From a virus (taxonomy: Duplodnaviria > Caudoviricetes): 59,795 bases of DNA. The position numbers and the translations under genes are program-made. The notes beneath the pieces are model-generated. The model saw only the letters and a program-made list of their open reading frames with translations, did no database searches and was not told the DNA's origin. The stretch spans positions 1-59,795 of the IMG/VR virus record IMGVR_UViG_3300030098_003320. One strand, given 5' to 3'. Shown piece after piece: positions 17,321-53,006 of the stretch; the stretch's first letter is position 1, and the number at the start of each line of letters is the position of its first letter.

Positions 17321-18706
17321 ATGGACTTTGCTGCTTCGATTACAAGATTTCGTAAAGATCCGACGTTGTTTGTAACGAACATCCTGAACGCCGATCCTGA
17401 TGAATGGCAGTCCGAGGTTATGGCCGCAGTCGCCAGAGGAGATCGTGGTATCTCGATTCGCTCAGGACACGGCGTTGGAAAAACGAGTTGCTTGTCGTGG
17501 CTCGCTTTGTGGTGGATCAGTTGTCATTACCACGCAAAGGTAGTTATCACAGCACCTACGTCCGCTCAGTTGCACGATGCGCTTTTGCCTGAAGCCAAAG
17601 CGTGGCTAAAACAGTCACCTGACGGTTTTGCGGATATGTTTACCGTGCGAGCAGACAGGATAGAACTTGCGGCTGATCCCGAGCGAAATTTTATATCAGC
17701 TAGAACATCCAGAGCTGAACAGCCCGACGCACTCCAGGGTGTACACGCTGAACACGTTTTGCTGATTTGTGATGAGGCTAGTGGTGTGCCTGAATCGGTA
17801 TACGAAGCTGCTGGTGGTAGCATGAGTGCGCTACACGCATCAATGGTACTGGCTGGAAACCCCGTAAGAAGTTCTGGCTACTTTTACGATACGTTTCACA
17901 AACTGTCAGATCGCTGGACAAACTTTCATGTGTCTTGCGAAAAAACTGCCAGAGTTTCTAATGAATACATCGAAGAGTGCAGACTTCGATACGGTGAAGA
18001 ATCCAACACCTATCGTGTCCGTGTATTAGGGGACTTTCCTAAGGGAGATGATGACACTGTTATCAGCATGGAACTGACTGATGGTGCAATCAATCGAGAC
18101 GTTATACCGACTCAATATAGTTCAATCGTGTGGGGCGTAGACGTAGCACGATTTGGTACTGACGCATCTGCCCTATGCCGTCGCAAAGGAAACGCTGTCA
18201 CGGAACCCGTCAGGCTTTGGCGTGGACTTGATACAATGCAACTGACAGGTGCAATCAAAGCTGAGTATGATACGGCAACAGAAAAGCCAGAAGAAATCTT
18301 TGTTGATGCGATTGGACTAGGTGCTGGTGTCGCGGATCGGCTAAGGGAACTTGGATTGCCCGCCTATGCAATCAATGTTAGTGAAAGCCCTGCGATGGGA
18401 GATACCTACCTGAACCTGCGGGCCGAGCTTTGGTACAAAGCAAAAGCGTGGCTTGAGGGACGCGACGTTCGCTTGCCACGCGACGACAGATTAAAATCTG
18501 AGTTGACTACTTTGCGGTACAACTATACGTCTAGTGGTAAAGTTAAAATCGAATCAAAAGCAGACTTAAAGAAACGAGGTGTCGCCAGCCCTGATGCTGC
18601 TGACGCTTTTGTATTAACATTTGCTTCTGATGCTGGGACGGCGATGGGTGGCCGATCACGCAGAAGGCATGGTAAACTAAAAAGAGATTTAGCAGGAATT
18701 GTCTAG
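17321..18706 (+). CDS. terL: Terminase large subunit (A)
   Basis: SGHGVGKT Walker A, LICDEA Walker B, GNP, GVDVARFG.D and SPDAADA. Confidence 0.95.
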   Translation: MDFAASITRFRKDPTLFVTNILNADPDEWQSEVMAAVARGDRGISIRSGHGVGKTSCLSWLALWWISCHYHAKVVITAPTSAQLHDALLPEAKAWLKQSPDGFADMFTVRADRIELAADPERNFISARTSRAEQPDALQGVHAEHVLLICDEASGVPESVYEAAGGSMSALHASMVLAGNPVRSSGYFYDTFHKLSDRWTNFHVSCEKTARVSNEYIEECRLRYGEESNTYRVRVLGDFPKGDDDTVISMELTDGAINRDVIPTQYSSIVWGVDVARFGTDASALCRRKGNAVTEPVRLWRGLDTMQLTGAIKAEYDTATEKPEEIFVDAIGLGAGVADRLRELGLPAYAINVSESPAMGDTYLNLRAELWYKAKAWLEGRDVRLPRDDRLKSELTTLRYNYTSSGKVKIESKADLKKRGVASPDAADAFVLTFASDAGTAMGGRSRRRHGKLKRDLAGIV

Positions 18707-18785
18707 GGGGTTCGGCTTTTATTGGCGTGATGGCCTGACTTAAATAAACAATATGTCTCCTGTAACCAGGTGTTGCCCCTAGGCA
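18700..18785 (+). ncRNA. Candidate three-way-junction RNA, copy 1
   Basis: P1 TGTCTAGGGG/CCCCTAGGCA; P2 GT..AC; TTAAA; P3 CCTG/CAGG. Confidence 0.55.
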
Positions 18786-18853
18786 TCTTCTGTTGAACAT
18801 TTTATTGCATCGAAGTACGTTCGGAGGGTTCACCCTCAAAAGAGTGGCATGAT

Positions 18854-20914
18854 TTGGCATACATAGACGAAGCTGAAACCGAAGTTGGTTTGGGCATGAC
18901 CGAAGACGAGTTGCAGGTCGCAGTTCGTCAATATATCGAAGATGCTATTCAGTTTATCGACGATGACATTAGCCCGATCAGGGCCGAGTCTACTCGTTAT
19001 TACAATGGTGAACCTTTTGGTAACGAGGTGGATGGTCGTAGTCAGGTCGTAAGCCGCGATGTCCGCGACAGCGTACAGGCGATGCTTCCGTCGCTAATGC
19101 GTGTGTTTTTTGGCGCAGAAAACATAGTTGACTTTGTGCCGCGTGGACCTGAAGACGTAGCTATGTCCGAACAGGCAACAGATTACGTCAACTACATACT
19201 TCGTGAAGACAATGACGCTATAGGAATATTTTATAGCGTTTTTAAAGATGCGCTTATTAACAAAGGCGGCATCGTTAAGTGGTCGTGGGATGATTCGGTT
19301 GAGGTACATACATACAGCTTTCAGGGGTTAGACGAACCTACCCTTGGGCTTCTCTTGGAAGAGGATGGAGTTGAGGCTGTTTCTGTTGAGGGAGTACCAA
19401 ACCCTAACGTACCACCTGAGCAAGTTCAGATGATGATTGCTCAGGGAATGGAACCGCCCATGATCTACGATGCTGAGATCAAGCGTCAGCGTAGGCGGGA
19501 CAAGGTGCGTGTTGAAACAATGCCACCAGAAAACTTTTTTGTAGATGCTGCTGCGACCAGCCTTGATGACGCACAGGTCGTTGGATCCAGAACGATGGCA
19601 ACCGTCAGCGATCTGGTAGCAATGGGTTATGACAAGGATATGCTCGACAACTACTTGTCTGACGAAGTGGCATTTACAGATAACGATGAATATTGGGCGC
19701 GATATCCAGACAGAAGCGCACCAGGTCCGTTATCAACCTACAATCAACGCAGGGTCTTGTACGTTGAGGCTTATTGCTACGTTGACTACGATGGTGATGG
19801 TTTAGCTGAACTACGCCGTGTGTGTACAGTTGGAAGCAACTACCATGTTGTAAACAACGAGCCTATTAGCAGCATACCGTTTGCAGTCTTTTCATGCGAT
19901 CCAGAGCCTCATGTGTTTTTTGGTTCTGATGTCGCAGATATGACTAAAGACATACAGCGAGTTAAGTCGGCAGTCCTTCGCGGTATGCTCGACTCTTTGT
20001 CTTTTGCGCTATATCCCCGAACAGGAATTGTTGAAGGTCAGGTAGACATTGACGATGTGCTAAATCCTGAAGTCGGGTCAATTATCAGGATGCGGGCACC
20101 AGGCATGGTTCAGCAGTTAAATGTGCCGTTCCTTGGCCGCGAAGCATTTCCAATGATGGAATATCTTGACGGAATGAAAGCGTCAAGAACTGGCGTATCG
20201 GGTGCGTCCCAAGGATTAGATCCTGACGTACTTCAGTCTACGACCCGTGCCGCCGTAAGCGCGACAATGAGGGGTGCAGAACAGCGACTAGAAATGATTG
20301 CTCGCTTGTTTGCAGAAACAGGTTTCAAGCCTTTGTTCAAAGGGTTGCTTCGTTTAATTATTGAAAACCAAGACCAAGAACGAATGGTAAGGTTGCGTAA
20401 CCAGTGGACACCTATAGACCCAAGAGTTTGGGATGCTACGATGGATGTGTCTACAAATGTTGGACTTGGTTCTGGAATGACTGACGAACGGCTTGCGACA
20501 CTTGCTCAAGTTGCCGCTAAACAACAAGAAATTATGCAGCAAATGGGACCAAACAATCCTCTTGTTGGCCTGGGCCAGATTAGAAACACGTTGGCAAAGA
20601 TGCTGGAGATTAACGGCTTTAAGGACTCAAACCAGTTCTTTAATCCGCTACCTATTGATTATCAGCCGCCTCCACCCCCGCCACCGCAACCTACGCCTCA
20701 AGAACAGCTAATGCAGGTGCAGATGGCTGACATCCAGGCGCGGACTGCTATCGACCAGCAAAAATTGCAGCTTGACGCGACGAAAGCAGAAATGCTTAAC
20801 GAGCGTGAAACAACGAGAATCGCTGGCGACTTAGCATTGCGAGAAAAGAAATTTGAAGACGATGTTGACCTTGAGATTGTTCGTGGCGCGATAAAGGAAG
20901 AAACAGGTGGATAA
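18854..20914 (+). CDS. Portal protein (A), TTG start
   Basis: After TerL; GRSQVVSRDVRD..LMRVF and DYDGDG.AELRRV; strongly similar to 53038-55101. Confidence 0.9.
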   Translation: MAYIDEAETEVGLGMTEDELQVAVRQYIEDAIQFIDDDISPIRAESTRYYNGEPFGNEVDGRSQVVSRDVRDSVQAMLPSLMRVFFGAENIVDFVPRGPEDVAMSEQATDYVNYILREDNDAIGIFYSVFKDALINKGGIVKWSWDDSVEVHTYSFQGLDEPTLGLLLEEDGVEAVSVEGVPNPNVPPEQVQMMIAQGMEPPMIYDAEIKRQRRRDKVRVETMPPENFFVDAAATSLDDAQVVGSRTMATVSDLVAMGYDKDMLDNYLSDEVAFTDNDEYWARYPDRSAPGPLSTYNQRRVLYVEAYCYVDYDGDGLAELRRVCTVGSNYHVVNNEPISSIPFAVFSCDPEPHVFFGSDVADMTKDIQRVKSAVLRGMLDSLSFALYPRTGIVEGQVDIDDVLNPEVGSIIRMRAPGMVQQLNVPFLGREAFPMMEYLDGMKASRTGVSGASQGLDPDVLQSTTRAAVSATMRGAEQRLEMIARLFAETGFKPLFKGLLRLIIENQDQERMVRLRNQWTPIDPRVWDATMDVSTNVGLGSGMTDERLATLAQVAAKQQEIMQQMGPNNPLVGLGQIRNTLAKMLEINGFKDSNQFFNPLPIDYQPPPPPPPQPTPQEQLMQVQMADIQARTAIDQQKLQLDATKAEMLNERETTRIAGDLALREKKFEDDVDLEIVRGAIKEETGG

Positions 20915-21176
20915 TCTGTCGCCAGAACAGAAAGGACGAAGGGCAAAAGAAATCCTTGAAGATGAAGTGTTTCTTGACGTTCTTGAAAAAGTTAGACAAA
21001 ACATTATTGCACAATGGACACTTACAGACGTAAATGATGTAGGTGTTCGAGAAAGTTTATATATGCAAGGCAGGGGCCTTGATGAGATTGTGCGAGGACT
21101 CCGCACCTTAGTAGGTGATTGGGCTGTGGAGCAGTCTCGCAAAGTTTCAAAATCCAATAGAGGAAGAAAATCGTGA
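20907..21176 (+). CDS. Conserved small head-module protein
   Basis: Homolog of 55278-55550. Confidence 0.7.
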   Translation: MDNLSPEQKGRRAKEILEDEVFLDVLEKVRQNIIAQWTLTDVNDVGVRESLYMQGRGLDEIVRGLRTLVGDWAVEQSRKVSKSNRGRKS

Positions 21177-22216
21177 GCGAAGCTACAGTCACCAACCCAG
21201 CAGGGACGGAAGTCTCTCAAGGGAGTGAGCGCAGACGCACGAATAGTGAAATCCAAGCAGGATTAGCTGAAATGCTTCGGGCTGATTATGTGCAGCCTGA
21301 AGAGCAAGCGCAGGACGAGTTTCAGCAAGTCGTCGAAGAACACGATGACACTGAACTCGAAGACGGCTACGAAGAAGAGGCCGTCGAGTCTGAGTTTTAT
21401 GAGGACTCAGATGAAGTGGATGAGATGGACGAGGAGACTGAAGGTGAACAATCCGAAAGCGAGAGTGCATCCTACCGTGTCATAGTAGACGGCAAAGAGA
21501 TGCAAGTCCCGCTTGACGAACTCATATCAGGCTACCAGCGGGGATCGTCATTCACACAGAAGAGTCAAGCATTAGCAGATGAACGCAGAGAGTTTGAGGC
21601 TAATGCTATGGCTGTTCAGCAGGAGCGTGAGTCGTACGCGACCGTGCTCCAGCAACTTCGACAGCAAATGGATGCTGCAACGCAACCGAACGTTGATTGG
21701 GACCGCTTGGAAAGGGAGAACCCCGTTCAATGGCTAAAGCTCAAAGAACTTGAGCGAGATCGGCAAGCACACATCCAGGCAGTACATGAAGAACAAGTTC
21801 GTATGCAACAACTTTTAGAGCAGGACAACGCTACAAGATTGCAATCACAACTTGAATCTGAACGTGCTTTGGTGTTGGAGAAAATCCCTGAGTGGTCCGA
21901 TAGTGAGGTTCAAAACCATGAACAAAGGCAGTTGATAAACTTTGGTTTATCTCTTGGTTTTAATGAAGATGAACTAAGTAACATCTACGATCACAGAGCA
22001 TTGATAGCTTTGCGTGATGCGTGGAGATACAACGAGCTTGTGAATGGCAAGAAAATCAAATCGGTCAAATCGAAAATCAAAAACGCAAAACCTGGCGGCA
22101 AACAAGTGAGCCGACAGATGCGTAGTCGTAAGGCAAAAGCCCAAAGAGCAAGGCTGAAGCAAACTGGAAAGGTTGAAGATGCTGCGTCTTTGTTGGGTGC
22201 AATACTTACGCAATAA
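21173..22216 (+). CDS. Scaffolding protein (A)
   Basis: Acidic N-terminus, VDG.E..V.LDELI.GY, coiled coil; precedes capsid. Confidence 0.85.
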   Translation: MSEATVTNPAGTEVSQGSERRRTNSEIQAGLAEMLRADYVQPEEQAQDEFQQVVEEHDDTELEDGYEEEAVESEFYEDSDEVDEMDEETEGEQSESESASYRVIVDGKEMQVPLDELISGYQRGSSFTQKSQALADERREFEANAMAVQQERESYATVLQQLRQQMDAATQPNVDWDRLERENPVQWLKLKELERDRQAHIQAVHEEQVRMQQLLEQDNATRLQSQLESERALVLEKIPEWSDSEVQNHEQRQLINFGLSLGFNEDELSNIYDHRALIALRDAWRYNELVNGKKIKSVKSKIKNAKPGGKQVSRQMRSRKAKAQRARLKQTGKVEDAASLLGAILTQ

Positions 22217-22234
22217 CTTTAGGAAACTTTTACT

Positions 22235-24248: not shown

Positions 24249-24251
24249 CAC

Positions 24252-38800: not shown

Positions 38801-38931
38801 AGTAAATATAAAGGGGGGTGTCTGCTGGTGGTTACTGCCACGGCGACACTTAAACAACCACAACCTATGTCCCAGCGTCGTTCTGTAGCCTTCATACCGC
38901 TTGAGTTCGCTGGTGGTGCCCCCTTTTTACT
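38801..38931 (+). ncRNA. Candidate three-way-junction RNA, copy 2
   Basis: P1 AAAGGGGG/CCCCCTTT; P2 GTGTC/GACAC; TTAAA; P3 CCAGCG/CGCTGG. Confidence 0.55.
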
Positions 38932-38982: not shown

Positions 38983-39195
38983 TTAGCTTCCAGTAGAGAC
39001 GACCGCTAAAAAGACGCTTCGCTTGTGGCTACGACTGGATCCGTTCTCGCTACTGCGTTTAGCGTCTTTTTTGTCGATGTGGCAATACTCGTTATTTAAC
39101 CCTTCCCAGCAATAATTACTTGTCGAAACGCAAGTGCCTAACCAGAAACACGCTCCTAGAATTACTGCCAACATCGACCACCGTTTTACTGTCAT
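38983..39195 (-). CDS. Small membrane/exported protein
   Basis: Hydrophobic N-terminus; ATGA coupling. Confidence 0.4.
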   Translation of the reverse strand: MTVKRWSMLAVILGACFWLGTCVSTSNYCWEGLNNEYCHIDKKDAKRSSENGSSRSHKRSVFLAVVSTGS

Positions 39196-39494
39196 GCGTC
39201 AGGCTCACGAAGAATCGCTACGCCTTCGGTCAAGACTTCACGTTGGCGATCGGTGAGAGGTGATGACTTCAATAGCTCCTGGGCATAATCTGTCCACTTG
39301 GTTTTGTGCAGAATCCTGCTTTGCGACAGCTCGGCAAAGTCAAACCAATGACTAGATCGGCTCGAGATCAGCCAAATTACAGCGTGCTTGTGTTCTCGGG
39401 CGTTTGGTGCGGTTGTGTTGTCAGCTCCGTAAACACACATATCGCGAACAGCCCTGAGAATGACGGCTGCTGCAAGTCGCTGATATGGATTCAT
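39192..39494 (-). CDS. Hypothetical protein
   Basis: PY.RLAAAVI.RAVRD motif common in phages. Confidence 0.6.
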   Translation of the reverse strand: MNPYQRLAAAVILRAVRDMCVYGADNTTAPNAREHKHAVIWLISSRSSHWFDFAELSQSRILHKTKWTDYAQELLKSSPLTDRQREVLTEGVAILREPDA

Positions 39495-39500
39495 AAGAGT

Positions 39501-39919
39501 TTAGGATATCTGTTGACCAATCCATTCTGCAACATTTACGGTAACGGCGTTGCCTAGCATTTGGTATCGGGTGCCTTTCCTTAAAGGCTTATTGCTTAAG
39601 CCGTAGCGAGTCCAATCGTCAGGAAACCCTTGGAGTCGTTCGCATTCAACCGGAGTCAATCGTCTTGGGGCGTTGTCGGTTGCTGTCACGTTTAAACAGG
39701 CCATGCCGTCTGTCGTTACGCCAAGGGCGGGTGAGACAGAGCCATGAATAGGGTCTTGGGAGTGCGCCACGGTCGCCAGCCAGACCGCTCCTGCGCCCTG
39801 CATCGCTATAGTCCTGGCAGGGGAACCCTCCGCAAATAACGTCAATTGATTTTGCGCTTTTAACATCTCTTACATCCTCATAGCCCGGAAAACAGGCTAC
39901 CGATCGTCAGGCTGCTCAC
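39501..39919 (-). pseudogene. Internally deleted C5-cytosine methyltransferase
   Basis: Motif I GSLFSG, motif IV DVICGGFPCQD and motifs IX-X RRLTPVECERLQGFP/GNAV, with a frame change between each block. Confidence 0.8.
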
Positions 39920-40191
39920 AGCTCTGCTATGTTGGCTGCGTAACCAGCAATGTCGATCAAACTGTCTTGGTGCCCCGGCGTGTTTGCCAAACGGGAAATT
40001 TTCTGGCAGATGTTAAACACGCAAACATCTTGTGCGTCCATTGTTGGTACGACCATGTATGGTCCATATCGCCGTTTCAAGTAGGCGCTGAACAGGTCAG
40101 CTGTGGCCCCGTGGTTCTGAGCCGGACTTCCGTAAGCATCGCGCCTGTTCTGGCTGACCAACACTTTGGCTTCATCTAAGATGTCCTTCAT
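39916..40191 (-). CDS. DUF6378-like phage protein
   Basis: IL.EA..LV...R...YG and KISR....DS..DIAGYA. Confidence 0.7.
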   Translation of the reverse strand: MKDILDEAKVLVSQNRRDAYGSPAQNHGATADLFSAYLKRRYGPYMVVPTMDAQDVCVFNICQKISRLANTPGHQDSLIDIAGYAANIAEL

Positions 40192-40691
40192 TCGGTTTTA
40201 TCCGAAAGAACCTCATAGTCAGCCTCTTCTATTTCATTTTCTTTTGTTCCCTTTTCCATTGCTCGAGACTCAACCTCTTTAAGCCCGGTTAAAAAAATTG
40301 CGCCAATGTCCCCGTTTACAGCCAACGCGGTAGTTTCGTTCTTCCCGTACGCAACACGATTTAAACGCTCTGCCATCCATCTCCTGTGCTCAACGCGCAG
40401 CCTTGCTGCCGGAATTGAACCGTCATCAGCTACATCTACGATCATTAAGCCCTCTTCAACCAAGTCAGACGCAATCATTTCCTTTACGCCCTGCCAGCGA
40501 TCCCACCTACCACCAGTCTTGTCTGCTTTGAGCCACTCGTAAAACACCCGGTTAGACATCTTGCCGACACTTTCGGGCATATTTTTTAACATATTCCTTA
40601 CAGATCGGTACTTCATGTACAGCTCAAATACTGCTGCCTCTCCGTAGGTATCTAACCGTTTGTGCGCGGCTCGCGTCAGCTTTTTCGACAT
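40188..40691 (-). CDS. Terminase small subunit-like protein (B)
   Basis: AARLRVEHRRWMAERLNRVAYG; homolog of 4974-5489. Confidence 0.55.
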   Translation of the reverse strand: MSKKLTRAAHKRLDTYGEAAVFELYMKYRSVRNMLKNMPESVGKMSNRVFYEWLKADKTGGRWDRWQGVKEMIASDLVEEGLMIVDVADDGSIPAARLRVEHRRWMAERLNRVAYGKNETTALAVNGDIGAIFLTGLKEVESRAMEKGTKENEIEEADYEVLSDKTE

Positions 40692-40702
40692 CGTCTATCC
40701 TT

Positions 40703-40996
40703 TTAAACCCAAGAGTTAATAACTGAATCAAGTAAACGTGACAGCTCTTGTTCTGGCACGCGCTCGCCATTGCCCCGAAACCGTAAAAGGTCATCTTCCG
40801 GTAACCCAAGCGAGTCCTCGTTCTGCATCTCTGTGTACTGCTCATCTAACCACCAAAAAGCAAGGTCGTCCCTCGCGCTCTGAATGTCACTGCGCCAGGC
40901 ATCAGCTTTGTCTGTAACGTCTTCAAGGGGTAGTAGGGCCACAGCCATGAGGACTCGGTCAGCCTTCTTAAAATACGCCCTACTCATGTAGGCCAC
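40703..40996 (-). CDS. Hypothetical protein (homolog of 5434-5748)
   Basis: LPEDDLLRF.GNGER. Confidence 0.6.
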   Translation of the reverse strand: MAYMSRAYFKKADRVLMAVALLPLEDVTDKADAWRSDIQSARDDLAFWWLDEQYTEMQNEDSLGLPEDDLLRFRGNGERVPEQELSRLLDSVINSWV

Positions 40997-41850
40997 ATAC
41001 CCTCCTCCTCCCTAGACGCCTCATGCACGGTCAAGGTGCGGTAATCCCAAAGAATAGGTATATCCAGAGTAGGCCCGTGACGGTTTTTCGCGCAGCACAA
41101 CCATGTCCGGGCGACATTGTCCGTTCGCTCGTAACGGCTGTGATCCAGCAATAAACACAAGTCGCTACTAGCCTCGAGGATCATGCCCCCGAATAGCCCT
41201 TGGCTCCGGGGCGTGCTGTCGTAGTTGCTTGAAGTGCTCCTGTTAAACTGCGACAAACACACGATCGTGCATTGGTGCTCCACACCCCAAGCTCTCAGCT
41301 CGGTCACGATTTTTTGCGTGGCCCGGTATATCTGATCTTCATCGCCCGTGTTCACTAGTTGCAAGTAGTCCAGAATAAAGTACCTGCATCCATCGGCATA
41401 ACAGGCTTTGCAATAGTCAACGACTGACTGCCAAGTGCTCAACAAATTTGTAGGCACCCACAAGGGTGGTGCGCCCTCCATCCCGGCAACAGCCTCAACC
41501 CAATCATCCTGTTGAAAGTGGCCTCTCTCAAGTCGGGCAATTCGTGTATGCGTGTGCAGCGCGTATAACCGTGTGGCAAGCTGCTGTGGCGACATCTCAA
41601 GCGAGATGTACCCAACGCTAGTCCCGTGGTTTAACACCGCGCTCGCAATGTTCAATGCTAGAGCCGACTTTCCGTGCCCAGGGTTGCCAGCAATCGTTAT
41701 AAACCATCCCGGCGCAAATCCACCGCCGCCACCGTCATCCCGACAAATGCGATTTAATGTGGGTATCCCCGTGGGGATGCTGACGATTTCTTCTTGTTGT
41801 TTCTGTGCGTACTGGTCTAGAAAATCCAGACTGAGAATGTCTTGTTTCAT
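40984..41850 (-). CDS. dnaB: DnaB-like helicase (B)
   Basis: GNPGHGKS, SLEMS, ILDYLQL, AKNRHGP. Confidence 0.9.
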   Translation of the reverse strand: MKQDILSLDFLDQYAQKQQEEIVSIPTGIPTLNRICRDDGGGGGFAPGWFITIAGNPGHGKSALALNIASAVLNHGTSVGYISLEMSPQQLATRLYALHTHTRIARLERGHFQQDDWVEAVAGMEGAPPLWVPTNLLSTWQSVVDYCKACYADGCRYFILDYLQLVNTGDEDQIYRATQKIVTELRAWGVEHQCTIVCLSQFNRSTSSNYDSTPRSQGLFGGMILEASSDLCLLLDHSRYERTDNVARTWLCCAKNRHGPTLDIPILWDYRTLTVHEASREEEGMWPT

Positions 41851-41854
41851 GTCG

Positions 41855-42718
41855 CTACTCTGCCCAAGCGGGCAAGCCGATCTTATGTATCTGAGTAGAA
41901 AAATTCCCGTCTACATAAGCGGGCCAGTAATTATTGAAGTAACAATTCTGCCATTTTGCTAGAAGGTGACGAAGGTGAGTCCTGCCGACAGACAATGCCT
42001 CCGCATCAAGCTCGTAAACTGCTACGCAATAAGGGGCGCTTCGCTCCACGCAGATAAATATGAAACGGTTTCTTTCCTGTCGGGTTGGCTCACCATCCTT
42101 GAAGCCCTCGAGGTAGTTCACGCCATTTAAGTAATGCGCGGCTTGGCGAAAATATCCACGCTCGTATAAGTCCCTTGAAAACGCCCGCTCCCTTGCGTCC
42201 TGTGTCGTCTTGATGTCTACGATCGCCCGCCCAAACTGACTGTTTATTTCGGGCAATGCGTCGATCCTCGCCTTGCACGCAACATCAAACGTAGGGTCAT
42301 GCCAGAATGCACTAACCTCGCTGCGGGAAACGTCCAACAGATCGGACGCGGCGGGATGATTTAGCACAGACTCGCGCATCTCTAATACAGCTCTGTGCTC
42401 AACCGCTTTGAGTATCTTGTCAGCCTTAAACGACTCTAGAAGCTCTGCGCGAGCCTCCTTCACCTCTTTGGACCTACCGTCGCCCTCCGGCAGCACGGCC
42501 CACTCTTTCTCAAAGAGAAGCGGCTCTAGAATAGCACTGTGTACCGCGCTCCCCATTATCATGGGGCGCGTTGGTATAACTGGGTTAGCCAGCGCGTGTC
42601 GCAAATGCGCGGGCGATCTCGCCAGGTGACCTAACCGAGAAGCGGAAGCTCCATCGGCTTTGTGGTAGTCCTCGGCGCTCATGTGATACAAAAGAGATTC
42701 TTCCTTGGTGGCTATCAT
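41855..42718 (-). CDS. RecE/exonuclease VIII-like nuclease (B)
   Basis: CKARID, DIKTT, Y.RQAAHY. Confidence 0.85.
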   Translation of the reverse strand: MIATKEESLLYHMSAEDYHKADGASASRLGHLARSPAHLRHALANPVIPTRPMIMGSAVHSAILEPLLFEKEWAVLPEGDGRSKEVKEARAELLESFKADKILKAVEHRAVLEMRESVLNHPAASDLLDVSRSEVSAFWHDPTFDVACKARIDALPEINSQFGRAIVDIKTTQDARERAFSRDLYERGYFRQAAHYLNGVNYLEGFKDGEPTRQERNRFIFICVERSAPYCVAVYELDAEALSVGRTHLRHLLAKWQNCYFNNYWPAYVDGNFSTQIHKIGLPAWAE

Positions 42719-43506
42719 GCTTCTACGCTCCAGTTGCGGCTTACAGCCGTTAATTGTGTTGTGGCCCTAGCTCGCGAAAGGCCACGGTGAGTCCAGCTCT
42801 CCCTTCGTTCCTCATTGCGAAACAGGCTCTCGGGTAGCTGGTACGCCCGAGTCCCCATGTGGTGCGGACTAGCTTTAACAGCCCGAAGAATCCCCCGAAA
42901 CAAATCCTCAGAGCTGTCGGCATCCGATAATTGCTCTTCATACAAAGCAGACAGAATCTGTTTTCGTTTCTTGGTAAGCTTTGGATGCGGCTTTTTAGGA
43001 GACAACTCATCCAGCCATATTTCCCACAACCGATCGACCTCTGGAGGTGTGTTAGTAGGTAATGGTTTAATGGTAGATGTATTGTTATTGTTCCTAGCCT
43101 GTTCCAAGTCTGTTCCAAGCCCCTTGCTAGAATAAGTAGAAAAGTCATTGTACGCAACGAAATTCACCACCTTTAAGTGTGTTCCATGCTTCGTGCGTGC
43201 CAAGACCTTAATACGGCCATCGCGTGCCAACGTATCCAGCATTCGTGATACCTGGCTGGTAGACCAAACGACCAGTTTGTTGTTGCCTGTGTAGGCGCAG
43301 TCGTCTGCAATCTGCCTCAAGCTCCGAAGGTATTCTCCCTGCTTAACGGTTACGGTGTCTGCACCCTGCCCGTAAGTAAACGACTTTGTGGCCGAGTGAT
43401 TTGCCTTCATCATTAGATAAAGAAACAAACGAACAAGGTCACTGTTCATTCGCCAAAGATCGTTGTCGATCAAACCTCTCGAGAGCAAGACAAATCCGCT
43501 ACTCAT
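42715..43506 (-). CDS. Replication initiator protein (B)
   Basis: Homolog of 7760-8530; internal CTGTTCCAAG repeats. Confidence 0.75.
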   Translation of the reverse strand: MSSGFVLLSRGLIDNDLWRMNSDLVRLFLYLMMKANHSATKSFTYGQGADTVTVKQGEYLRSLRQIADDCAYTGNNKLVVWSTSQVSRMLDTLARDGRIKVLARTKHGTHLKVVNFVAYNDFSTYSSKGLGTDLEQARNNNNTSTIKPLPTNTPPEVDRLWEIWLDELSPKKPHPKLTKKRKQILSALYEEQLSDADSSEDLFRGILRAVKASPHHMGTRAYQLPESLFRNEERRESWTHRGLSRARATTQLTAVSRNWSVEA

Positions 43507-43844
43507 GCGCTGACGATGTCCCCTTTCTCTTCCAAGAAGTCGTAGACATCCCTGACGTCATATGCCACAAGATAGGGAACGCCCGTGCGGTCGCATTCTG
43601 ACTGAAATCCGACCTGGCTCTCGCGCAACTTGCCGCCCGGAGCCTTAACTTCGATAAAGAAAAAAGGGACCATAGAATCGTTGCCATTGAACACCAGAAG
43701 GTCAGGGATGCCCGGCGTCTGTCTAGTGCCTCCCTTATCGCGACGGTAGCCCTGCTCAGTCGAATACACAGAGCAACCAATCATCTTTAAGAATTGCTGC
43801 ACCTCCCGGCTTACCCTTGCTTCCGGCTTAACCCTTTTTGCCAT
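43503..43844 (-). CDS. VRR-NUC nuclease (B)
   Basis: PGIPDL, FIEVK..GGKL..SQ. Confidence 0.85.
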   Translation of the reverse strand: MAKRVKPEARVSREVQQFLKMIGCSVYSTEQGYRRDKGGTRQTPGIPDLLVFNGNDSMVPFFFIEVKAPGGKLRESQVGFQSECDRTGVPYLVAYDVRDVYDFLEEKGDIVSA

Positions 43845-44094
43845 CGTTACCCTCGGGCACCGGGTAGTCACGGTGCAATTCTCTGAGGGTAACAAGGAGG
43901 TATTCCACAGCTTGGTCGATCGCGATCCTGCTCTTGAGGACACCGTCCCTGCTCCCGTTCTGTAGGAGTGTCTCAGGGACGCGGCCCAAACGTCTGCTGA
44001 CGCGCTTTAAATCGTCTTGGATCTCGCCAACTTCGTTGAACAGAAGAGGGCGCATATCCTCCACCATGCGCTCTAGCTTAGAAGGGTAGGCCAT
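43828..44094 (-). CDS. Hypothetical protein (homolog of 8862-9101)
   Basis: Similarity and synteny. Confidence 0.6.
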   Translation of the reverse strand: MAYPSKLERMVEDMRPLLFNEVGEIQDDLKRVSRRLGRVPETLLQNGSRDGVLKSRIAIDQAVEYLLVTLRELHRDYPVPEGNDGKKG

Positions 44095-44338
44095 CGTCGC
44101 TCCCCTCGGCCACTGGCTGACCAGCCTTGGGCTTCGGCTTCCAGGTATCGACCTGAGCGTACCATTTGCCCTCGCGCCCCTCCTTAATGTCTACGTTTAG
44201 CCACTCGCCTTCTTGAGTCGCAATAAACTTCGCAAAGTCGGCAATCTTAAAGCTCACGCGAGCCTTCACAAAGTCAGGTGCAGAATCTCGAGGAGCCGAC
44301 GCATACATTCCATTGGGAAATACTTTGTCATGCGGCAT
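44078..44338 (-). CDS. Small SSB-like protein (B)
   Basis: APDFVK...VDTW...DDGLPF. Confidence 0.6.
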   Translation of the reverse strand: MPHDKVFPNGMYASAPRDSAPDFVKARVSFKIADFAKFIATQEGEWLNVDIKEGREGKWYAQVDTWKPKPKAGQPVAEGSDDGLPF

Positions 44339-44358
44339 AATGTCATCGTCCTGTTGGG

Positions 44359-44793
44359 TTAAAAAAGAGACGGCTCGTTTTCTACAAGCCGCCAGAGATA
44401 TGCTTTCCTTCCACTACGGGTGTCACGCTTGCGGTCGGTGCGCTCTGCCAGACCAAGCTCTCTCAGCTCCGACAGTCTTCGCCCGGCGGTGTGATGCCCG
44501 TCAAACAACGATACATCTAATTCGTCAGCAGTTAAGTGACCACGATCACGCAATAGTCCTAGAATCTTGTCGCGCTGGCGTTGTGCGCCCCGCGTCATAG
44601 ATGCAGCGGCATCATGGCTAGTGTCGGGGTCATCGTTCCTAGCCCTTGGCTGAACAAGCGGATCGCGGGGATCCTGGAAAGCGTGTCCAGCCGGGCACCG
44701 CCACAAAGCCGTCCCGCCTCGCGTCATATGCGAAACAGTTGCCCACTGGCGGCACCCGTCTGCCGGGCACCTTTTAATGCCGGAGCTAACCAC
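44359..44793 (-). CDS. Winged-HTH protein with N-terminal Cys motif
   Basis: AR.DDPDTSH.AA, LTADEL, RRLSELRE.G. Confidence 0.65.
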   Translation of the reverse strand: MVSSGIKRCPADGCRQWATVSHMTRGGTALWRCPAGHAFQDPRDPLVQPRARNDDPDTSHDAAASMTRGAQRQRDKILGLLRDRGHLTADELDVSLFDGHHTAGRRLSELRELGLAERTDRKRDTRSGRKAYLWRLVENEPSLF

Positions 44794-45484
44794 GAAGCTC
44801 GCCCTCTAAAAACCTAATTGCATCCTCTACGCGAGCGATCGGCCCACGGTCACCTAGGTACTTCTTGGCAACATCTATTCCCTTCGTATCTATGTTGCCT
44901 TCGCCCTCGCAAGCGGTCACTAGGCTCGCAAGCTTGGCTAGAGAATCCTCAAGGTGTGCCCCCCGCTCCTTTTCCTGCTTCTTGGCAGCAGCGGCCCGCC
45001 TTTTCTTCTCGGCGGCGGTCAAAGGTTTTACGGTATTTACCTCAATCGGTTTAGGCACACCCGACCCGTCCCTGTAGAGCTGTAGGCCTAATCCCGTTAG
45101 GGTAGCAACAGCCTTAACAACGCAACGCCAGCGAGCATCGTTAATATCTCGAGACGACGGGTTTTCGATAGCGTCATAGCGGTTGTCCATTACAGCCAGC
45201 GTGCAAGCTTGCCATATAAAGTCGCCCGCCCCGTCAGGAATAGAGACGCCGCACTCAACTTCGGCGCTTCCATCCGGGTAAAAGTGCGCTGGTTTAAAAG
45301 AGTAGGTTGCAGCCGGGTAATGTTCTGTTAGAATCGCCCAGCAATCAGCCCAGGGTAGCCACGAAAGCGATCGGTTGCCAATGCTGCGGCTTTGAGTGTA
45401 GGGGGATACATCCACCCCTTTTAGGCTGTCGCGAACATCAGTCGCCGTCAGGACGGGAGAATCAGACATCAGCACTCCCTCCAT
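44786..45484 (-). CDS. Sak/Rad52-like annealing protein (B)
   Basis: LSWLPWA, YPDGSAEV, LAVMDNR, RCVVKA..GLGL.LY. Confidence 0.8.
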   Translation of the reverse strand: MEGVLMSDSPVLTATDVRDSLKGVDVSPYTQSRSIGNRSLSWLPWADCWAILTEHYPAATYSFKPAHFYPDGSAEVECGVSIPDGAGDFIWQACTLAVMDNRYDAIENPSSRDINDARWRCVVKAVATLTGLGLQLYRDGSGVPKPIEVNTVKPLTAAEKKRRAAAAKKQEKERGAHLEDSLAKLASLVTACEGEGNIDTKGIDVAKKYLGDRGPIARVEDAIRFLEGELRG

Positions 45485-48177: not shown

Positions 48178-48387
48178 ATGATTTACTTTCTCTGTTTTTC
48201 TCTACTATGTGGAGCGCTTAGCGCCACCGCCTACTTACCGACGCCGGGCCACCGCCTGAACCGTTTTGCGTTTCGTAGGCAACTAAGAAAAGCGGCCTAT
48301 GCTTTTGCGGTTGGTTGTTGGGTGGGGTTCCTGTTCTTGTCAGTAGTGGGGGGGATGTACGCCGCAATCCTGATCAGCTCACCATGA
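48178..48387 (+). CDS. Small two-TM membrane protein
   Basis: RBS GGGAGG; two hydrophobic segments. Confidence 0.55.
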   Translation: MIYFLCFSLLCGALSATAYLPTPGHRLNRFAFRRQLRKAAYAFAVGCWVGFLFLSVVGGMYAAILISSP

Positions 48388-48692
48388 AGCGCAACGGAAA
48401 GCAGTTACGGACACTAGAGCCGGGCGACAAGCGGCGACTAGCAGACGCCCGGAATGCTTATAAAAAAATGACGCCCGCCCAACGTGATGAATTCGCGCAA
48501 TGGGTGGCAATTTTCGACGCCGCCCTATCGGAGGGCCATGACCCAAACAATGCCGCTAAATGTGCTACTTACTCATTGCGGAATGAGGTGGCGCGGAATT
48601 CGCTCAACAAGCGGAGGTTGGCAGACCCTCGGAATGTTTATATAAAGGCGGCCTGCAATGCCGCCCTATCCGAGGGCCGCGACCATGGCTAA
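48384..48692 (+). CDS. Hypothetical protein with internal duplication
   Basis: KRRLAD.RN.Y...AALSEG occurs twice. Confidence 0.55.
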   Translation: MKRNGKQLRTLEPGDKRRLADARNAYKKMTPAQRDEFAQWVAIFDAALSEGHDPNNAAKCATYSLRNEVARNSLNKRRLADPRNVYIKAACNAALSEGRDHG

Positions 48693-49452
48693 AACGAACA
48701 GCGCGGAAATATGGCGCGGCGCTAGCCGTATAGATGGCGCTCCGATTGTGTGCATCGCTTCCGGTCTTAAGACCAGCGCCAACCGGAAAACGGGCGCAAT
48801 GGTCCAAAGCTACATATTGCGCCGGGATGTGGACCCAATGGCCGCGCTTAAAAGCGGCGGGGATGTTTCCATTTGTGGCGGTTGCATCCATAGGCCGGGA
48901 AGCGCCACCGGGTCCGGTTACTCGGATCGCTCTTGCTATGTGAATGTGGGACAAGGGCCGTTGTCAGTTTGGCGGGCGTGGGAGCGTGGGAATGTCCCGG
49001 CGGTATCACTGGACGCCGTCCCCGGTCTAGTCGCTGGACGTATGGTGCGGTTGGGCACCTACGGGGACCCGGCGGCTGTACCGTTGGCCGTGTGGGATTC
49101 GTATACGGCCAACTCCAAGGGCTGGACCGGGTACACCCACCAGAGCCGCAACCGCAAGCTCCGGGACGTTTTGAAGTACTGCCAAGTATCCGCGGACACG
49201 CCCGACGATGCCGCCGCCGCACGCCGGGCGGGCCTCGGATCGTTCCGAGTGTTGCGGGCCGGAGAACGCCCGCTTGATTTTGAGACAATCTGCCCGGCAT
49301 CTGAGGAGGCGGGCCGGGTGGCAACGTGTGAGACTTGCGGCATATGCCGAGGCGTCGATGGCGCTAACGTAGCAATCGCCGCGCATGGTATTGGTGCGCC
49401 CGTCAAGATCGACCGCCGCCGCCCGATTGACTTTTCAACCTGGAGAACCTGA
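48685..49452 (+). CDS. Cys-rich phage gp88-like / radical-SAM-related protein
   Basis: NRKTG.MVQ, CGGC.H...CYV, VRLGTYGDP, WTGYTHQ, CP...TC..C..C. Confidence 0.6.
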   Translation: MAKTNSAEIWRGASRIDGAPIVCIASGLKTSANRKTGAMVQSYILRRDVDPMAALKSGGDVSICGGCIHRPGSATGSGYSDRSCYVNVGQGPLSVWRAWERGNVPAVSLDAVPGLVAGRMVRLGTYGDPAAVPLAVWDSYTANSKGWTGYTHQSRNRKLRDVLKYCQVSADTPDDAAAARRAGLGSFRVLRAGERPLDFETICPASEEAGRVATCETCGICRGVDGANVAIAAHGIGAPVKIDRRRPIDFSTWRT

Positions 49453-49455
49453 ACC

Positions 49456-49629
49456 ATGAAGACCGATATAGAAAAGGCTCTAAAAGAAGCCAGTATATCT
49501 ATTGCTTGCGCGTTAGATGAAGAGCCAACCGCCGAAGACCTTGAGCATATCCAGAGCCAGATCACGATACTAGAAAACCTACTACCAGTATATCTATTGC
49601 TTGCGCGTCATGCGATGAGGCGACCATGA
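49456..49629 (+). CDS. Small protein (57 aa) containing a 24-bp direct repeat
   Basis: RBS GGAG; MKTDIEKALKE...; ATGA coupling. Confidence 0.45.
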   Translation: MKTDIEKALKEASISIACALDEEPTAEDLEHIQSQITILENLLPVYLLLARHAMRRP

Positions 49630-49892
49630 AAACTGATAACGTAGACAAGCTACTAGCGGACCCGTGTACGCCGTACTGGATGCGGGAAGTTTCCCGGCGT
49701 TTAGGCCGCGTCGATCCGGTCGACGCCATCCACGGGCTACAGGCACTAGCCGAGGCAATGGACGCGGACCATAGGGACCACACACGGGAAAAGATCGCCC
49801 AACACTTCGGGGACAAGGCCGCCGCGATTTATGCGCTCGGGGCTGGCAATGTTCCCGGGTTGCGCGTCGTCGTGGAGGGCGAAGAACTATGA
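49626..49892 (+). CDS. Hypothetical protein
   Basis: LADP.TPYW......DPVDA motif. Confidence 0.55.
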   Translation: MKTDNVDKLLADPCTPYWMREVSRRLGRVDPVDAIHGLQALAEAMDADHRDHTREKIAQHFGDKAAAIYALGAGNVPGLRVVVEGEEL

Positions 49893-50038
49893 GCGATCTA
49901 ACCGGGGTGCTAATTGTGGCGCTTGTGGCGTTCTCATTCATTAACGCCGTTCGCGTGTGTCGATCCGAGAACCCGAGCATATGGGCGGCCATCGTGTGGC
50001 CGCTGGCTACGCTGTACTTGGTCGCGTGGTACTTCTAA
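49889..50038 (+). CDS. Small membrane protein (49 aa)
   Basis: Two hydrophobic segments; ATGA coupling. Confidence 0.45.
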   Translation: MSDLTGVLIVALVAFSFINAVRVCRSENPSIWAAIVWPLATLYLVAWYF

Positions 50039-50092
50039 CCGGGCACGGTCCCGGCGGCGTCTACTAGGCACGCCGGGATCTCTCCCGAGATC

Positions 50093-50123
50093 AGGCCGTC
50101 CCCTCCGGGGGGCGGTCTTTTTT
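50093..50123 (+). terminator. Rho-independent terminator
   Basis: AGGCCGTCCCC TCCG GGGGGCGGTCT followed by a T-run. Confidence 0.75.
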
Positions 50124-50546
50124 CGTGCCTATGCTTTCCGGGCAATGGATGCCGGGGCGCGGCTCATAAACGCGATTCAAGGCCCGGCAATGCGTTGGGG
50201 GTATGGTTACCTATGGGAACGCGCTGAGAGTCTTTAGGCGGGCGGATAGGGACCGGAGAACGTGGCACGCGCCCGCGCGGGAACACTAAACCGGAACTAG
50301 TTCGGGTTTAGGTGGTGCCACCGGAACCGGAACCGGGTCCGGGTTCGGGTTCGTGCCCGGTGGGATGCGAGGGCGTGCCTATAGCATGGAATAGCAATGC
50401 CAGAGAATCGAGGTGGGATGAGATGGCATGACCACCCCCCCCTCGAGCCAGAGCAGGGGACCAGCACTGGTACTACTCAACACAGATTCTCTTGCTATTT
50501 TTTCCCAATCCTGAAATTTTGTACTATCGCACTTCAAGGAGCCACT

Positions 50547-50789
50547 ATGGTTGACTCATCAGAATTAATCAGTCTTGCAGAAAACATTAAGGGTCGTCTC
50601 AAGTTCTATACCCATGGGAGTCCTGAGAGAATCCTTTTGCAGAGATCGCACGATGCTATTGCTGGTTTTGCGAGAGGAGTTGATGCAGAATTTGTGTATA
50701 CCTGGCTGATGGACAACGGGGTAAACCTTACGCTTCGGCAGCGTAGAATTTTGGGACTAGAGCCCGAAGCTGTGAACACCAAAGAATAA
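50547..50789 (+). CDS. Hypothetical protein (homolog of 14437-14670)
   Basis: RBS AAGGAG; similarity. Confidence 0.65.
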   Translation: MVDSSELISLAENIKGRLKFYTHGSPERILLQRSHDAIAGFARGVDAEFVYTWLMDNGVNLTLRQRRILGLEPEAVNTKE

Positions 50790-50834
50790 TGCGTTTCCGT
50801 AGTATCTAAGCCAAAAAATTTGTAATTCTTTTTA

Positions 50835-50874
50835 GGCTTGGAACAGAGTTGGAACAATAACAAACATTAAACCA
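50835..50874. repeat. Condensed inverted copy of the iteron tract in B's initiator gene (43063-43121)
   Basis: GGCTTGGAACAGA, GGAACAATAACAA and CATTAAACCA blocks match the reverse complement. Confidence 0.8.
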
Positions 50875-50891
50875 CTCTTAGTATCTATACT

Positions 50892-51086
50892 ATGTCGAAA
50901 TCAACGGAGCATTCAAAGCAAGATCCGTTGTGGGTCATATGTGACCTGTGCGAAGACCTGTGGTGTACGCTTCACGGTTCCCATGTTGCGGACTGCTTGT
51001 GTCCAGGGATCGAGGAGTTTGCTACGTTTGGTGTAGACCCTTACACAATGCCAGGAGAAGATTGCCATGCCGTATCGGGTTCGTGA
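50892..51086 (+). CDS. Small Cys/His-rich protein (homolog of 14835-15038)
   Basis: Conserved CDLCE..WCT.H..HV.DCLCPG. Confidence 0.7.
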   Translation: MSKSTEHSKQDPLWVICDLCEDLWCTLHGSHVADCLCPGIEEFATFGVDPYTMPGEDCHAVSGS

Positions 51087-51222
51087 GTCTACTGTCCAGG
51101 TCCAGCGGCCCAGCGGGTGGAAGACGCTCAAGGTCCACAAGACCAAGCAAGCCGCTAGAAAGCACATGAAAGCTTTGAACGCTAACGTGACGCACAAAAA
51201 GCCTAAGTACAAAAAGAGGTAG
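51067..51222 (+). CDS. Small basic protein (51 aa), homolog of 15845-15979
   Basis: MPYRVRESTVQVQRPSGWKTLKVHKT... Confidence 0.7.
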   Translation: MPYRVRESTVQVQRPSGWKTLKVHKTKQAARKHMKALNANVTHKKPKYKKR

Positions 51223-51226
51223 CCAA

Positions 51227-51463
51227 ATGCGTAAGTATGCCACCTACGATGAATTGCTTGCGGCACGCAGAAAACGATTGTCAAAGAATCAAGTCCTTAA
51301 AATGCTTGCTCACGATCGCATAGCGGAGACTGTTAAAAATTCTTGGGCTACCAGAAAAACCGATGCTCAGTGGGCTGACGAGTTTGGGGTTTTGCCATTG
51401 TCTGTAAGCAGGGCACGCAAGGGAATTACTTGGCAAACCCTGTATCGCGAGTACCGCGCATAA
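51227..51463 (+). CDS. Small HTH-like protein
   Basis: WADEFGV...SVSRARKGITW. Confidence 0.55.
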   Translation: MRKYATYDELLAARRKRLSKNQVLKMLAHDRIAETVKNSWATRKTDAQWADEFGVLPLSVSRARKGITWQTLYREYRA

Positions 51464-51464
51464 A

Positions 51465-52868
51465 ATGTCTTCGTTTATTGCGCCCGATCTTGTTAGAGAC
51501 ATTGAAACAATGCGGGCAGATCCCGCAATTTTTGTTAGAGATATGCTGGGTGCAGAGCCAGATGTTTGGCAGCTAGAGGTTATGGCCGCTGCCGCTAAAC
51601 AAACTCGAGGGATTAGTATTCGATCGGGTCACGGTGTAGGAAAGACCAGTTGTTTATCCTGGCTGGCCTTGTGGTTTATTTTTGTTCATTATCACGCCAA
51701 GGTCATTGTTACAGCACCTACGTCTGCTCAGTTGCACGATGCGTTGCTTCCTGAAACAAAAGCGTGGTTAAAGCAAGGGCCTACAGCGTTTCAAAAATTA
51801 TTTAATGTCAAATCTGACCGCATAGAATTAGCTGCCGACCCCGAACGCAATTTTATATCTGCTAAAACATCTAGAGCTGAACAGCCCGATGCACTCCAGG
51901 GTGTACACGCAGAGCACGTCATGCTCATCTGTGACGAAGCCAGCGGTGTGCCGGAACAAGTGTACGAGTCGGCTGGTGGCTCAATGTCTGCTCATCACGC
52001 GACAATGGTACTAGCGGGCAACCCCGTCCGCTCATCGGGATACTTTTACGACACGTTTAATAAACTAGAAGATCGGTGGGAAACATTTCACATATCATGT
52101 GAAGACACCGCTCGAGTATCGAAAGAATACATTGAAGAATGCAGGATTCGGTATGGTGAAGACTCTAACACTTACCGCGTTCGTGTACTCGGAGAGTTTC
52201 CCAAGGGTGATGACGACACAGTCATTCCGCATGAATTGGTTGCAGAAGCGATTAGCCGCGACATTCAACCGTCGTCGTTTGGCCCAACTGTGTGGGGAGT
52301 GGACGTTGCTCGTTTTGGTGCCGACGCCTCTGCGTTATGCAAACGCAAAGGCAACGCTGTAACCGAGCCAATACGATTGTGGCGAAACCTGGACACAATG
52401 CAGCTAACGGGTGCCATCAAGGCAGAATACGATATTGCATCAGAAAAACCTGTAGAAATTTTTGTAGATGCAATCGGACTTGGCGCTGGTGTCGCAGACC
52501 GTTTGCGCGAACTGGGTTTGCCAGCCTACGCAATCAACGTCAGCGAAAGCCCCGCGATGGGCAACCACTACTTGAACCTTCGCGCCGAGCTGTGGTACAA
52601 AGCAAAAGGATGGCTTGAAGGGCGCGATGTTCGCTTACCTTCCGACAATCGCCTAAAGTCTGAGTTGACCACCGTTCGCTACAATTTCACTTCCGGCGGC
52701 AGGGTTAAGATAGAATCTAAGGCTGATTTAAAACGACGAGGCGTAGCGTCTCCCGACGCAGCAGACGCTTTCGTTCTAACCTTTGCGTCTGACGCTGGCA
52801 CAGCTATGGGTAGACGGTCGGGTAAACATATGGGTAGTATTAAGAGGAACCTTGCAGGTATCGTGTAG
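51465..52868 (+). CDS. terL: Terminase large subunit (B)
   Basis: Same motifs as 17321-18706. Confidence 0.95.
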   Translation: MSSFIAPDLVRDIETMRADPAIFVRDMLGAEPDVWQLEVMAAAAKQTRGISIRSGHGVGKTSCLSWLALWFIFVHYHAKVIVTAPTSAQLHDALLPETKAWLKQGPTAFQKLFNVKSDRIELAADPERNFISAKTSRAEQPDALQGVHAEHVMLICDEASGVPEQVYESAGGSMSAHHATMVLAGNPVRSSGYFYDTFNKLEDRWETFHISCEDTARVSKEYIEECRIRYGEDSNTYRVRVLGEFPKGDDDTVIPHELVAEAISRDIQPSSFGPTVWGVDVARFGADASALCKRKGNAVTEPIRLWRNLDTMQLTGAIKAEYDIASEKPVEIFVDAIGLGAGVADRLRELGLPAYAINVSESPAMGNHYLNLRAELWYKAKGWLEGRDVRLPSDNRLKSELTTVRYNFTSGGRVKIESKADLKRRGVASPDAADAFVLTFASDAGTAMGRRSGKHMGSIKRNLAGIV

Positions 52869-52895
52869 TGTCTATTATTTAATGTTGAATAGATA

Positions 52896-53006
52896 GATGC
52901 GTTGGGGGGTAGCCCTGACTAAGCTTGGTGGCCTAACAGAGTTACTTAAATGACCAAAACTTGCGCTTCGTTTCTCCTCCCGAGACGAGGGTGCCCCCAG
53001 CCCATC
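52896..53006 (+). ncRNA. Candidate three-way-junction RNA, copy 3
   Basis: P1 TTGGGGG/CCCCCAG; P2 GTAGC/GTTAC; TTAAA; P3 CTTCGTTTC/GAGACGAGG. Confidence 0.55.

Follow-up and report, generated by a model that had tools for sequence, protein, structure and literature searches.

What is the RNA that folds between the terminase large subunit (TerL) gene and the portal gene of a marine phage, and what might it do there? The stretch in which the question arises, hereafter the window, is the viral record IMGVR_UViG_3300030098_003320, analysed at its full length of 59,795 nt. The original prediction, made from the letters alone, had placed three elements with one common fold on its + strand, and covariance models and folds find all three where it had put them. 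They belong to a structured, sense-strand RNA of ~90-125 nt that was previously uncatalogued and that comes from uncultured marine phages. As for its role, we tentatively regard it as a module that acts in cis to set a boundary in the mRNA, be it by processing, stability or termination.

A covarying three-way junction RNA

With the covariance model the window yields three copies and no more, each on the + strand: copy A at 18698-18787 and copy B at 52897-53005, each between a TerL and a portal gene, and an extra copy (Bx) at 38806-38930. A first model, built from 11 relatives of copy A only, scored copy A at 92.7 bits (E-value 2.5e-23), the extra copy at 33 bits (4.9e-6) and copy B at 29 bits (6.9e-5); the E-values of the covariance models are rough, their calibration having been shortened. 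With filters off, a broader model gave 76.9 bits for A, 68.3 for B and 62.1 for the extra copy, and no other match in the window exceeded 12.3 bits. The reverse strand of copy A scored 7.7 bits in this model versus 76.9 for the forward strand. Minimum free energy folds show the same architecture at all three sites, with a z-score of -2.89 for copy A. The pattern GGGGG..ACTTAAA..CCCC matches copies A and B, where shuffles expect 0.00 matches, and the looser GGGGK..ACTTAAA is found at the three sites only, with 8 overlapping matches against 0.27 expected.

The fold runs in the order P1, P2 hairpin, C-UUAAA, a 3-bp helix with the P3 hairpin, one invariant G and P1'. P1 is the closing helix, with a G-C-rich top on which P2 is directly stacked; the single strand that follows P2 reads C-UUAAA-Y-R. 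The 3-bp helix is ACC/GGU in most members and AAC/GUU in the copy-A subtype, and on its 3' side it runs into P3 with 0 nt between them in 65 of 80 members. A G-rich apex of P2 (UGGC, GGUG or GGGG) is seen in 43 of 81 members, the P3 hairpin is absent in two (L255 and L229), and the RNA contains many G-U pairs.

In copy A, P1 pairs 18701-18709 with 18776-18784 and contains the TerL stop codon, TAG at 18704-18706. The P2 hairpin (18710-18739, loop UGGC) is followed by UUAAA at 18740-18744, the 3-bp helix pairs 18747-18749 with 18772-18774, the P3 hairpin spans 18759-18770 and the unpaired G is 18775. Copy B has its P1 at 52901-52908 with 52994-53001, P2 at 52909-52945 and UUAAA at 52946-52950; ACC at 52953-52955 pairs with GGU at 52990-52992, with the P3 hairpin between them, and the unpaired G is 52993. 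Here the TerL stop (52866-52868) lies 31 nt 5' of P1. In the extra copy P1 pairs 38810-38817 with 38919-38926, followed by a run of five T; P2 spans 38818-38849, UUAAA occupies 38850-38854, and ACCAC at 38857-38861 pairs with GUGGU at 38913-38917, enclosing a long P3 hairpin, before the unpaired G at 38918.

Is the fold maintained by selection? Pairs were counted in a motif-blind alignment of 54 distinct rows. Standard pairing is found in 91.9% of cells versus 77.9% when shuffled, both sides have changed in a compensatory manner in 21 of 27 pairs, and 0 of 500 shuffles reach any of the observed measures; the alignments behind these counts were fitted to the model and are thus biased towards the structure. 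When partners are slid by 1-3 columns, pairing falls to 32-56%. Counts in an earlier set of sequences agree with these values. Given the effect size and these slid controls, chance is an unlikely source of the covariation. Covariation extends to the G-C-rich top of P1 (at one pair, GC 46 versus AU 6). Invariant in 52 motif-blind unique rows are two G of the P1 top with their partners, the G-C pair closing P2, the U-U-A-A-A, the central C-G of the short helix and the single unpaired G before P1'. Selection acts at the RNA level, on the + strand. A readthrough or coding role for the region was dismissed on reading the sequence: downstream of the stop every frame is closed after a few codons, and the stems show covariation.

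Several details of the original prediction can be refined on this basis. It had noted that the G-run of P1 is always one G longer than the partner C-run: the extra G in fact opens P2, where its partner is the invariant C ahead of UUAAA (G-C in 53 of 53 cells). The TTAAA that it called invariant is so in all 52 unique motif-blind rows. A P2 that starts GT and ends AC is a property of the window copies and does not extend to the family, in which the second P2 pair covaries between U-A and C-G (UA 25, CG 10). Of the TG described before P1', the G alone is unpaired, and it is invariant, the U being paired within the 3-bp helix that the linker after UUAAA forms with the strand just before P1'. The middle pair of that helix reads CG in 41 cells and AU in 13 with 0 broken, a change that amounts to essentially one phylogenetic split. 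A fourth pair was dropped, being unpaired in 32 of 54 cells. The linker had also been proposed to pair with the apical P2 region as a possible pseudoknot. Such complementarity exists in the three window copies but is not conserved (mean longest helix 4.15 versus 3.61 with shuffled apices), and in the copy-A subtype it falls to 3.22 versus 3.45, the linker covarying with the strand before P1' instead. It is possible in many ACC-type members, and at least 5 contiguous pairs can form in 26 of 81.

The family comprises 81 distinct full-length sequences from marine viral and metagenome contigs. Because pattern scans are biased by construction, loci were also gathered by portal-protein similarity alone, which gave a motif-blind set of 80 viral loci (portal identity 67-100%) that was then scanned with the covariance model. 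The RNA is found on the sense strand upstream of the portal gene in 68 of these 80, two of them cut by a contig end. Among the 74 loci having at least 495 nt of upstream DNA it lies between TerL and portal in 66, which upholds the conservation at this place that had been proposed, and eight lack it. In four of the eight (L262, L263, L265 and L266) the TerL stop is followed by a plain G-C hairpin built around the UAGGGG...CCCCU stem of the RNA, which we read as a reduced or ancestral form of the junction RNA; the other four (L277, L278, L280 and L281) have other hairpins or an inserted open reading frame (ORF). The plain hairpin at L262:870-915, UAGGGGUGA...UCACCCCUG, sits directly on the TerL stop, and likewise in L263, L265 and L266. 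Of the 103 matches in a pattern scan of viral contigs most were due to chance. The same kind of scan in metagenomes returned 64 stretches, mostly from ocean samples, of which 63 were confirmed as members, and among 185,579 prokaryotic species genomes it returned two, one of them a true member on a 20.5-kb contig of a metagenome-assembled genome. Family size and diversity of contexts are lower bounds, shaped by the search patterns and by portal similarity.

No known family accounts for this RNA, as the original prediction of an unrecognised structured RNA on the + strand had supposed. At gathering threshold, Rfam 15 matches the window only with a tmRNA model at 15026-15103, and nothing at the RNA copies. 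When each copy with its flanks was searched at E-values up to 10, only unrelated families appeared at chance level (12-15 bits against gathering scores of 59-86). Ten further members, searched at E-values up to 5, gave four unrelated matches, three of them off the RNA; the fourth overlaps it in L149, at 19.8 bits versus a gathering score of 50. ARAGORN calls no tRNA or tmRNA in the window, and no match of the tRNA clan falls on the copies. With blastn, copy A and the extra copy have no match in 50,697 GenBank phage records. The nearest deposited relatives (portal identity up to 49%) have genes or nothing between TerL and portal and no match to the model. No description of this RNA was found in the full-text literature, supplements and subscription journals lying outside the coverage. 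The accessible part of PMC9004378 reports a tmRNA and glutamine riboswitches in another phage.

A partial resemblance to pistol ribozymes had been suggested as well, and it holds to a limited extent. Both RNAs are small and phage-associated, and the pistol linker also reads UUAAA. They share the order of hairpin, A-rich linker, short helix, asymmetric internal loop and hairpin (pistol topology from the accessible part of PMC4604425), the marine RNA differing by an extra closing helix that creates a three-way junction. As described in that part of PMC4604425, a pseudoknot in pistol joins the loop of the first hairpin to the left junction of the next two helices, and the right junction between P3 and P2 is strictly two nucleotides long (GU, the cleavage site). 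In the marine RNA the longest helix that the P2 apex can form with the left junction has a mean length of 2.30, versus 2.23 for shuffled apices (79 members), and the right junction measures 0 nt in the 65 members mentioned above, 1 nt in 10 and 3-4 nt in four, with no inner helix in one (80 members). Membership in the pistol family (RF02679) was therefore ruled out: there is no Rfam match, no pseudoknot and no 2-nt junction.

Behind stop codons in several operons

The RNA is always oriented in the sense of its flanking genes and keeps close to the stop codon of the upstream one. In 59 of 81 unique members this stop falls within P1, and in the others it is no more than about 31 nt away, the extra window copy (221 nt) being the one exception; for these distances the nearest ORF was used where the automatic pick was a longer, more distant one. 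In members between TerL and portal, the upstream ORF has ~460-490 aa and ends in ..(I/V)V*, with the stop inside P1. On the other side, a stretch of 16 to 355 nt separates the RNA from the portal start and sometimes contains a small ORF.

Portal starts in the RNA-bearing loci are TTG (59) or GTG (8) in 67 of 68 cases, and in the 68th, too, a TTG precedes the match by one codon. Where the start is clear in loci that lack the RNA (L277, L278, L280 and L281), it is ATG, with a better Shine-Dalgarno sequence, and another four such loci seem to have retained TTG; the correlation rests on one or two clades and is phylogenetically shallow.

Other members occur far from packaging genes. In early operons the RNA follows a gene for a Sak-like annealase, an ORF with a DGLP(F/W) tail of the type found in single-stranded DNA-binding proteins (SSB) and a small ORF that resembles ribbon-helix-helix proteins and ends in ..WWx; it ends 10-25 nt before a strong Shine-Dalgarno sequence and an ATG. 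The early operons of the window itself carry Sak and DGLPF genes, yet the covariance model finds no RNA there. Two ORFs of these operons, 44078-44413 (-) and 9085-9354 (-), each downstream of a Sak-like annealase gene, end in ..DGLPF, which we take to be an acidic tail of the SSB type. One member (L202) closes a primase/helicase operon that meets convergent genes there, and another is found (L192) on a contig with bacterial-type genes. Two sites have no downstream gene on the strand of the RNA, which fits a role at a 3' end rather than in a 5' leader.

In the window, the + strand late genes, the last of which encodes a metallophosphoesterase, and the - strand early genes end on either side of the extra copy. 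To the RNAs of two contigs with early operons (L203 and L154) the 5' half of this copy shows 80-82% identity, more than to the TerL copies of the window. The 5' strand of its P2 includes, at 38824-38831, the octamer GCTGGTGG, the sequence of the Escherichia coli Chi site, which also occurs in P2 of several relatives (e.g. L030 and L151) and not in A or B. About 50 nt away, the - strand early operon ends with a 70-aa ORF (38983-39195, -) whose start resembles a signal peptide with a lipobox (..LGAC..). A run of at least four T within 12 nt after the element is present in 18 of 83 unique members, the extra copy included. Consensus scans for promoters and terminators around copy A and the extra copy gave nothing relevant, with no terminator at A and no promoter upstream of the extra copy.

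A composite window

Gene calls and Pfam identify two TerL-portal pairs in the window. TerL A (17321-18706, +) has weak Pfam matches, and its final codons and stop form the 5' strand of P1 in copy A; portal A (18854-20914, +) begins with TTG 66 nt 3' of the RNA and matches SU10_portal at 2.9e-207. TerL B (51465-52868, +; Terminase_6N, 1.4e-7) is a paralogue of TerL A, and portal B (53038-55101, +; SU10_portal, 2.1e-205) begins with GTG 32 nt 3' of its RNA. The two portal proteins have 77% amino-acid identity.

Comparison of the window with itself and with a complete 34.2-kb relative reveals ~1.75 genome lengths, that is, three diverged versions of a ~34-kb phage arranged head to tail. The first contributes the end of a late region with early genes (1-14666), the second a full late region (16006-38587) followed by an early region on the - strand (38983-45484), and the third a late region from 45849 to the end of the window. 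TerL and portal regions are 72-76% identical between versions, and short stretches at the end of the contig are 96-99% identical. The 59.8-kb record may thus be an assembly chimera, the alternative being a real concatemer. The original description of a three-copy family is accurate for the window, but as the window is composite it may overstate the number of copies per phage: each of the five near-complete relatives has one copy. One relative (G006) has a 127-bp terminal repeat that was judged a possible assembly overlap. Across 17800-19800, contigs of sequencing runs X14 and X15 show 19 differences from the window, with 0 of them within 18380-19257, which covers the TerL end, the RNA and the portal start.

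The tmRNA match at 15026-15103 (+) reaches 62.2 bits against a gathering score of 47 and involves the ends of the model only. It corresponds to a 78-nt tRNA-like domain (GGGGACG...CGUCUCCA) without an mRNA-like part, in which ARAGORN calls nothing. The match sits in the divergent gap between early and late genes, and ~680 nt around it are conserved with 74% identity in the complete relative G001.

Candidate roles for the RNA

What could such an RNA do behind a stop codon? Its sense orientation, its position flush with the upstream stop, its portability between operons, its presence at operon ends, the T runs and the substitution by a plain hairpin together point towards a boundary module. The plain hairpin at the TerL stop of L262-type loci suggests that a hairpin has a generic role at this site, and the occurrence in several operon contexts argues against a role specific to the portal gene or to packaging. 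A regulator of the portal gene or a packaging-associated RNA, both named in the original prediction, have accordingly lost ground, since the RNA is tied to the upstream stop, the portal gap ranges from 16 to 355 nt with small genes intervening, and other operons carry it too. As a boundary, the fold would stop 3'-to-5' decay of a polycistronic transcript, or mark the point at which the transcript terminates or is cleaved. The upstream cistron (TerL) would then have a fate of its own, uncoupled from that of the downstream one, a portal gene weakly initiated at UUG or GUG. A host RNase, termination, a block to exonucleases or self-cleavage are candidate makers of the boundary. To terminate at the TerL stop, a ribosome would also have to open P1, and folding could in this way be linked to translation of the upstream gene.

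Comparable elements are known. The RNase III sites of phage T7, like the marine RNA, are structured sense-strand elements in polycistronic mRNA of podoviruses, between a stop and the next start, and cleavage there is thought to leave a protective hairpin on the upstream message. They are irregular hairpins without a three-way junction or a comparably invariant junction, and we know of no sequence relation between them and the marine RNA. Intrinsic terminators and 3' stabilising hairpins share with it a G-C-rich closing stem right after the stop; a T run is found in a minority of members and a plain hairpin acts as substitute in L262-type loci. On the other hand, most members have no T run, and what would be the loop is a conserved, branched structure of 80-100 nt with invariant nucleotides.

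Several observations weigh against a boundary module, besides the bias of the alignments towards the structure. No T run follows 65 of 83 unique members, copies A and B among them, and at A no terminator was detected by the consensus scans. Of 24 sequencing runs listed, 20 contain the stretch or part of it, and only one is an RNA library, at a 0.07 share of words; when four runs were aligned to the window, the material from RNA libraries amounted to one 172-nt contig at 19045-19212, inside the portal gene and off the RNA. The dozen or so invariant nucleotides of the junction exceed what a decay barrier or a terminator needs and are more typical of a catalytic core or of a pocket for a ligand or protein. 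Finally, ATG starts in RNA-less and TTG or GTG starts in RNA-bearing loci hint at a link to portal translation in one or two clades.

The invariant junction is what gives weight to two alternatives. One is a specific binding site, either a small-molecule aptamer (riboswitch) or an operator for a phage or host protein, that would tune translation of, or read-through into, the next gene, for instance the UUG-start portal gene. The G-rich P2 loop of 43 of 81 members would suit it, as would the early-operon RNAs ending 10-25 nt before a strong ribosome-binding site and the start codons just discussed; moreover the linker can pair either with the 3' strand or with the P2 apex, so that two conformations are possible. 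Yet a riboswitch is expected in the 5' leaders of related genes together with an expression platform, and here the downstream genes are unrelated (portal, small membrane-like ORFs) or absent, no expression platform is conserved, the distance to the portal start is variable, and the start-codon correlation comes from one or two clades with four further RNA-less loci seemingly keeping TTG. We consider a binding site rather unlikely. The other alternative is a new class of small self-cleaving ribozyme that would cut polycistronic phage mRNA between cistrons. Its small size would fit, together with invariant nucleotides concentrated at the junction while stems covary freely, a sense-strand location in several unrelated intercistronic phage contexts and a layout that in part recalls pistol. 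Sporadic presence among close relatives (66 of 74 loci) and an extra copy in the window versus single copies in five relatives are in line with this too, and known small ribozymes often lie near phage genes (PMC4604425, accessible part). Against it, no Rfam ribozyme model matches even at E-values up to 10 on short stretches, the pseudoknot and the strict 2-nt junction of pistol are absent, and L255 and L229 have lost the P3 hairpin, so that we hold this class to be improbable. The junction, with the G-C-rich P1 top, C-UUAAA, the ACC/GGU mini-helix and the lone G, would then be the predicted active site, and the module would spread between intercistronic sites, a proposal to which we give equally little credence. 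A close relative of the ribozyme idea is that the junction may resist exonucleases and so define mRNA 3' ends.

Two further explanations are a trans-acting RNA and an element acting at the DNA level. The pRNA of phage phi29, likewise a podovirus RNA built around a three-way junction, is a separate early transcript that binds the portal, in phages with a protein-primed genome and without a classical terminase. A trans-acting, virion or packaging RNA of this kind, or a decoy for a host factor, could be imagined from the three-way junction, from the packaging genes adjoining most members, from a loop-linker complementarity that could in principle act between molecules, and from the extra copy, which could pass for a small gene of its own, with ~220 nt to the nearest gene upstream and a T run at its end. 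But these phages have an ordinary TerL, and in 59 of 81 members the coding end of TerL reaches into P1, which means that the RNA is transcribed as part of the TerL mRNA; it also occurs in replication operons far from packaging genes, and the consensus scan finds no promoter upstream of the extra copy. Such a role is thus highly improbable. The put RNAs of phage HK022 are a likeness of another sort, two stem-loops just after early promoters that act in antitermination: they too are folded operon RNAs acting in cis, with more than one diverged copy per genome and a common fold, whereas the marine RNA lies kilobases into operons or at their ends. An element acting at the DNA level, be it a single-strand structure such as a priming signal or a small mobile inverted-repeat element, would explain the P1 arms as a terminal inverted repeat, the differing intercistronic sites with variable presence, and an extra copy that is closest to one from another context in another contig. 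It is nonetheless very unlikely, as pairing survives in highly diverged copies by means of compensatory and G-U changes confined to one strand, orientation always follows transcription, and the flanks, when read, showed no target-site duplications.

Catalogues cover the structured RNAs of phages poorly, and the one described here is abundant in ocean metagenomes, has unusually clear covariation and has no match in Rfam 15. Its invariant junction, and its recurrence behind the stop codons of various operons, suggest a portable RNA device that phages would use to partition long messages. If the junction proves to be catalytic or to bind a ligand, it would represent a new RNA class and a compact, transferable part for the control of polycistronic expression. 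If it is merely a site of processing or stability, it would still allow tests of how these uncultured phages balance terminase against portal and structural proteins.

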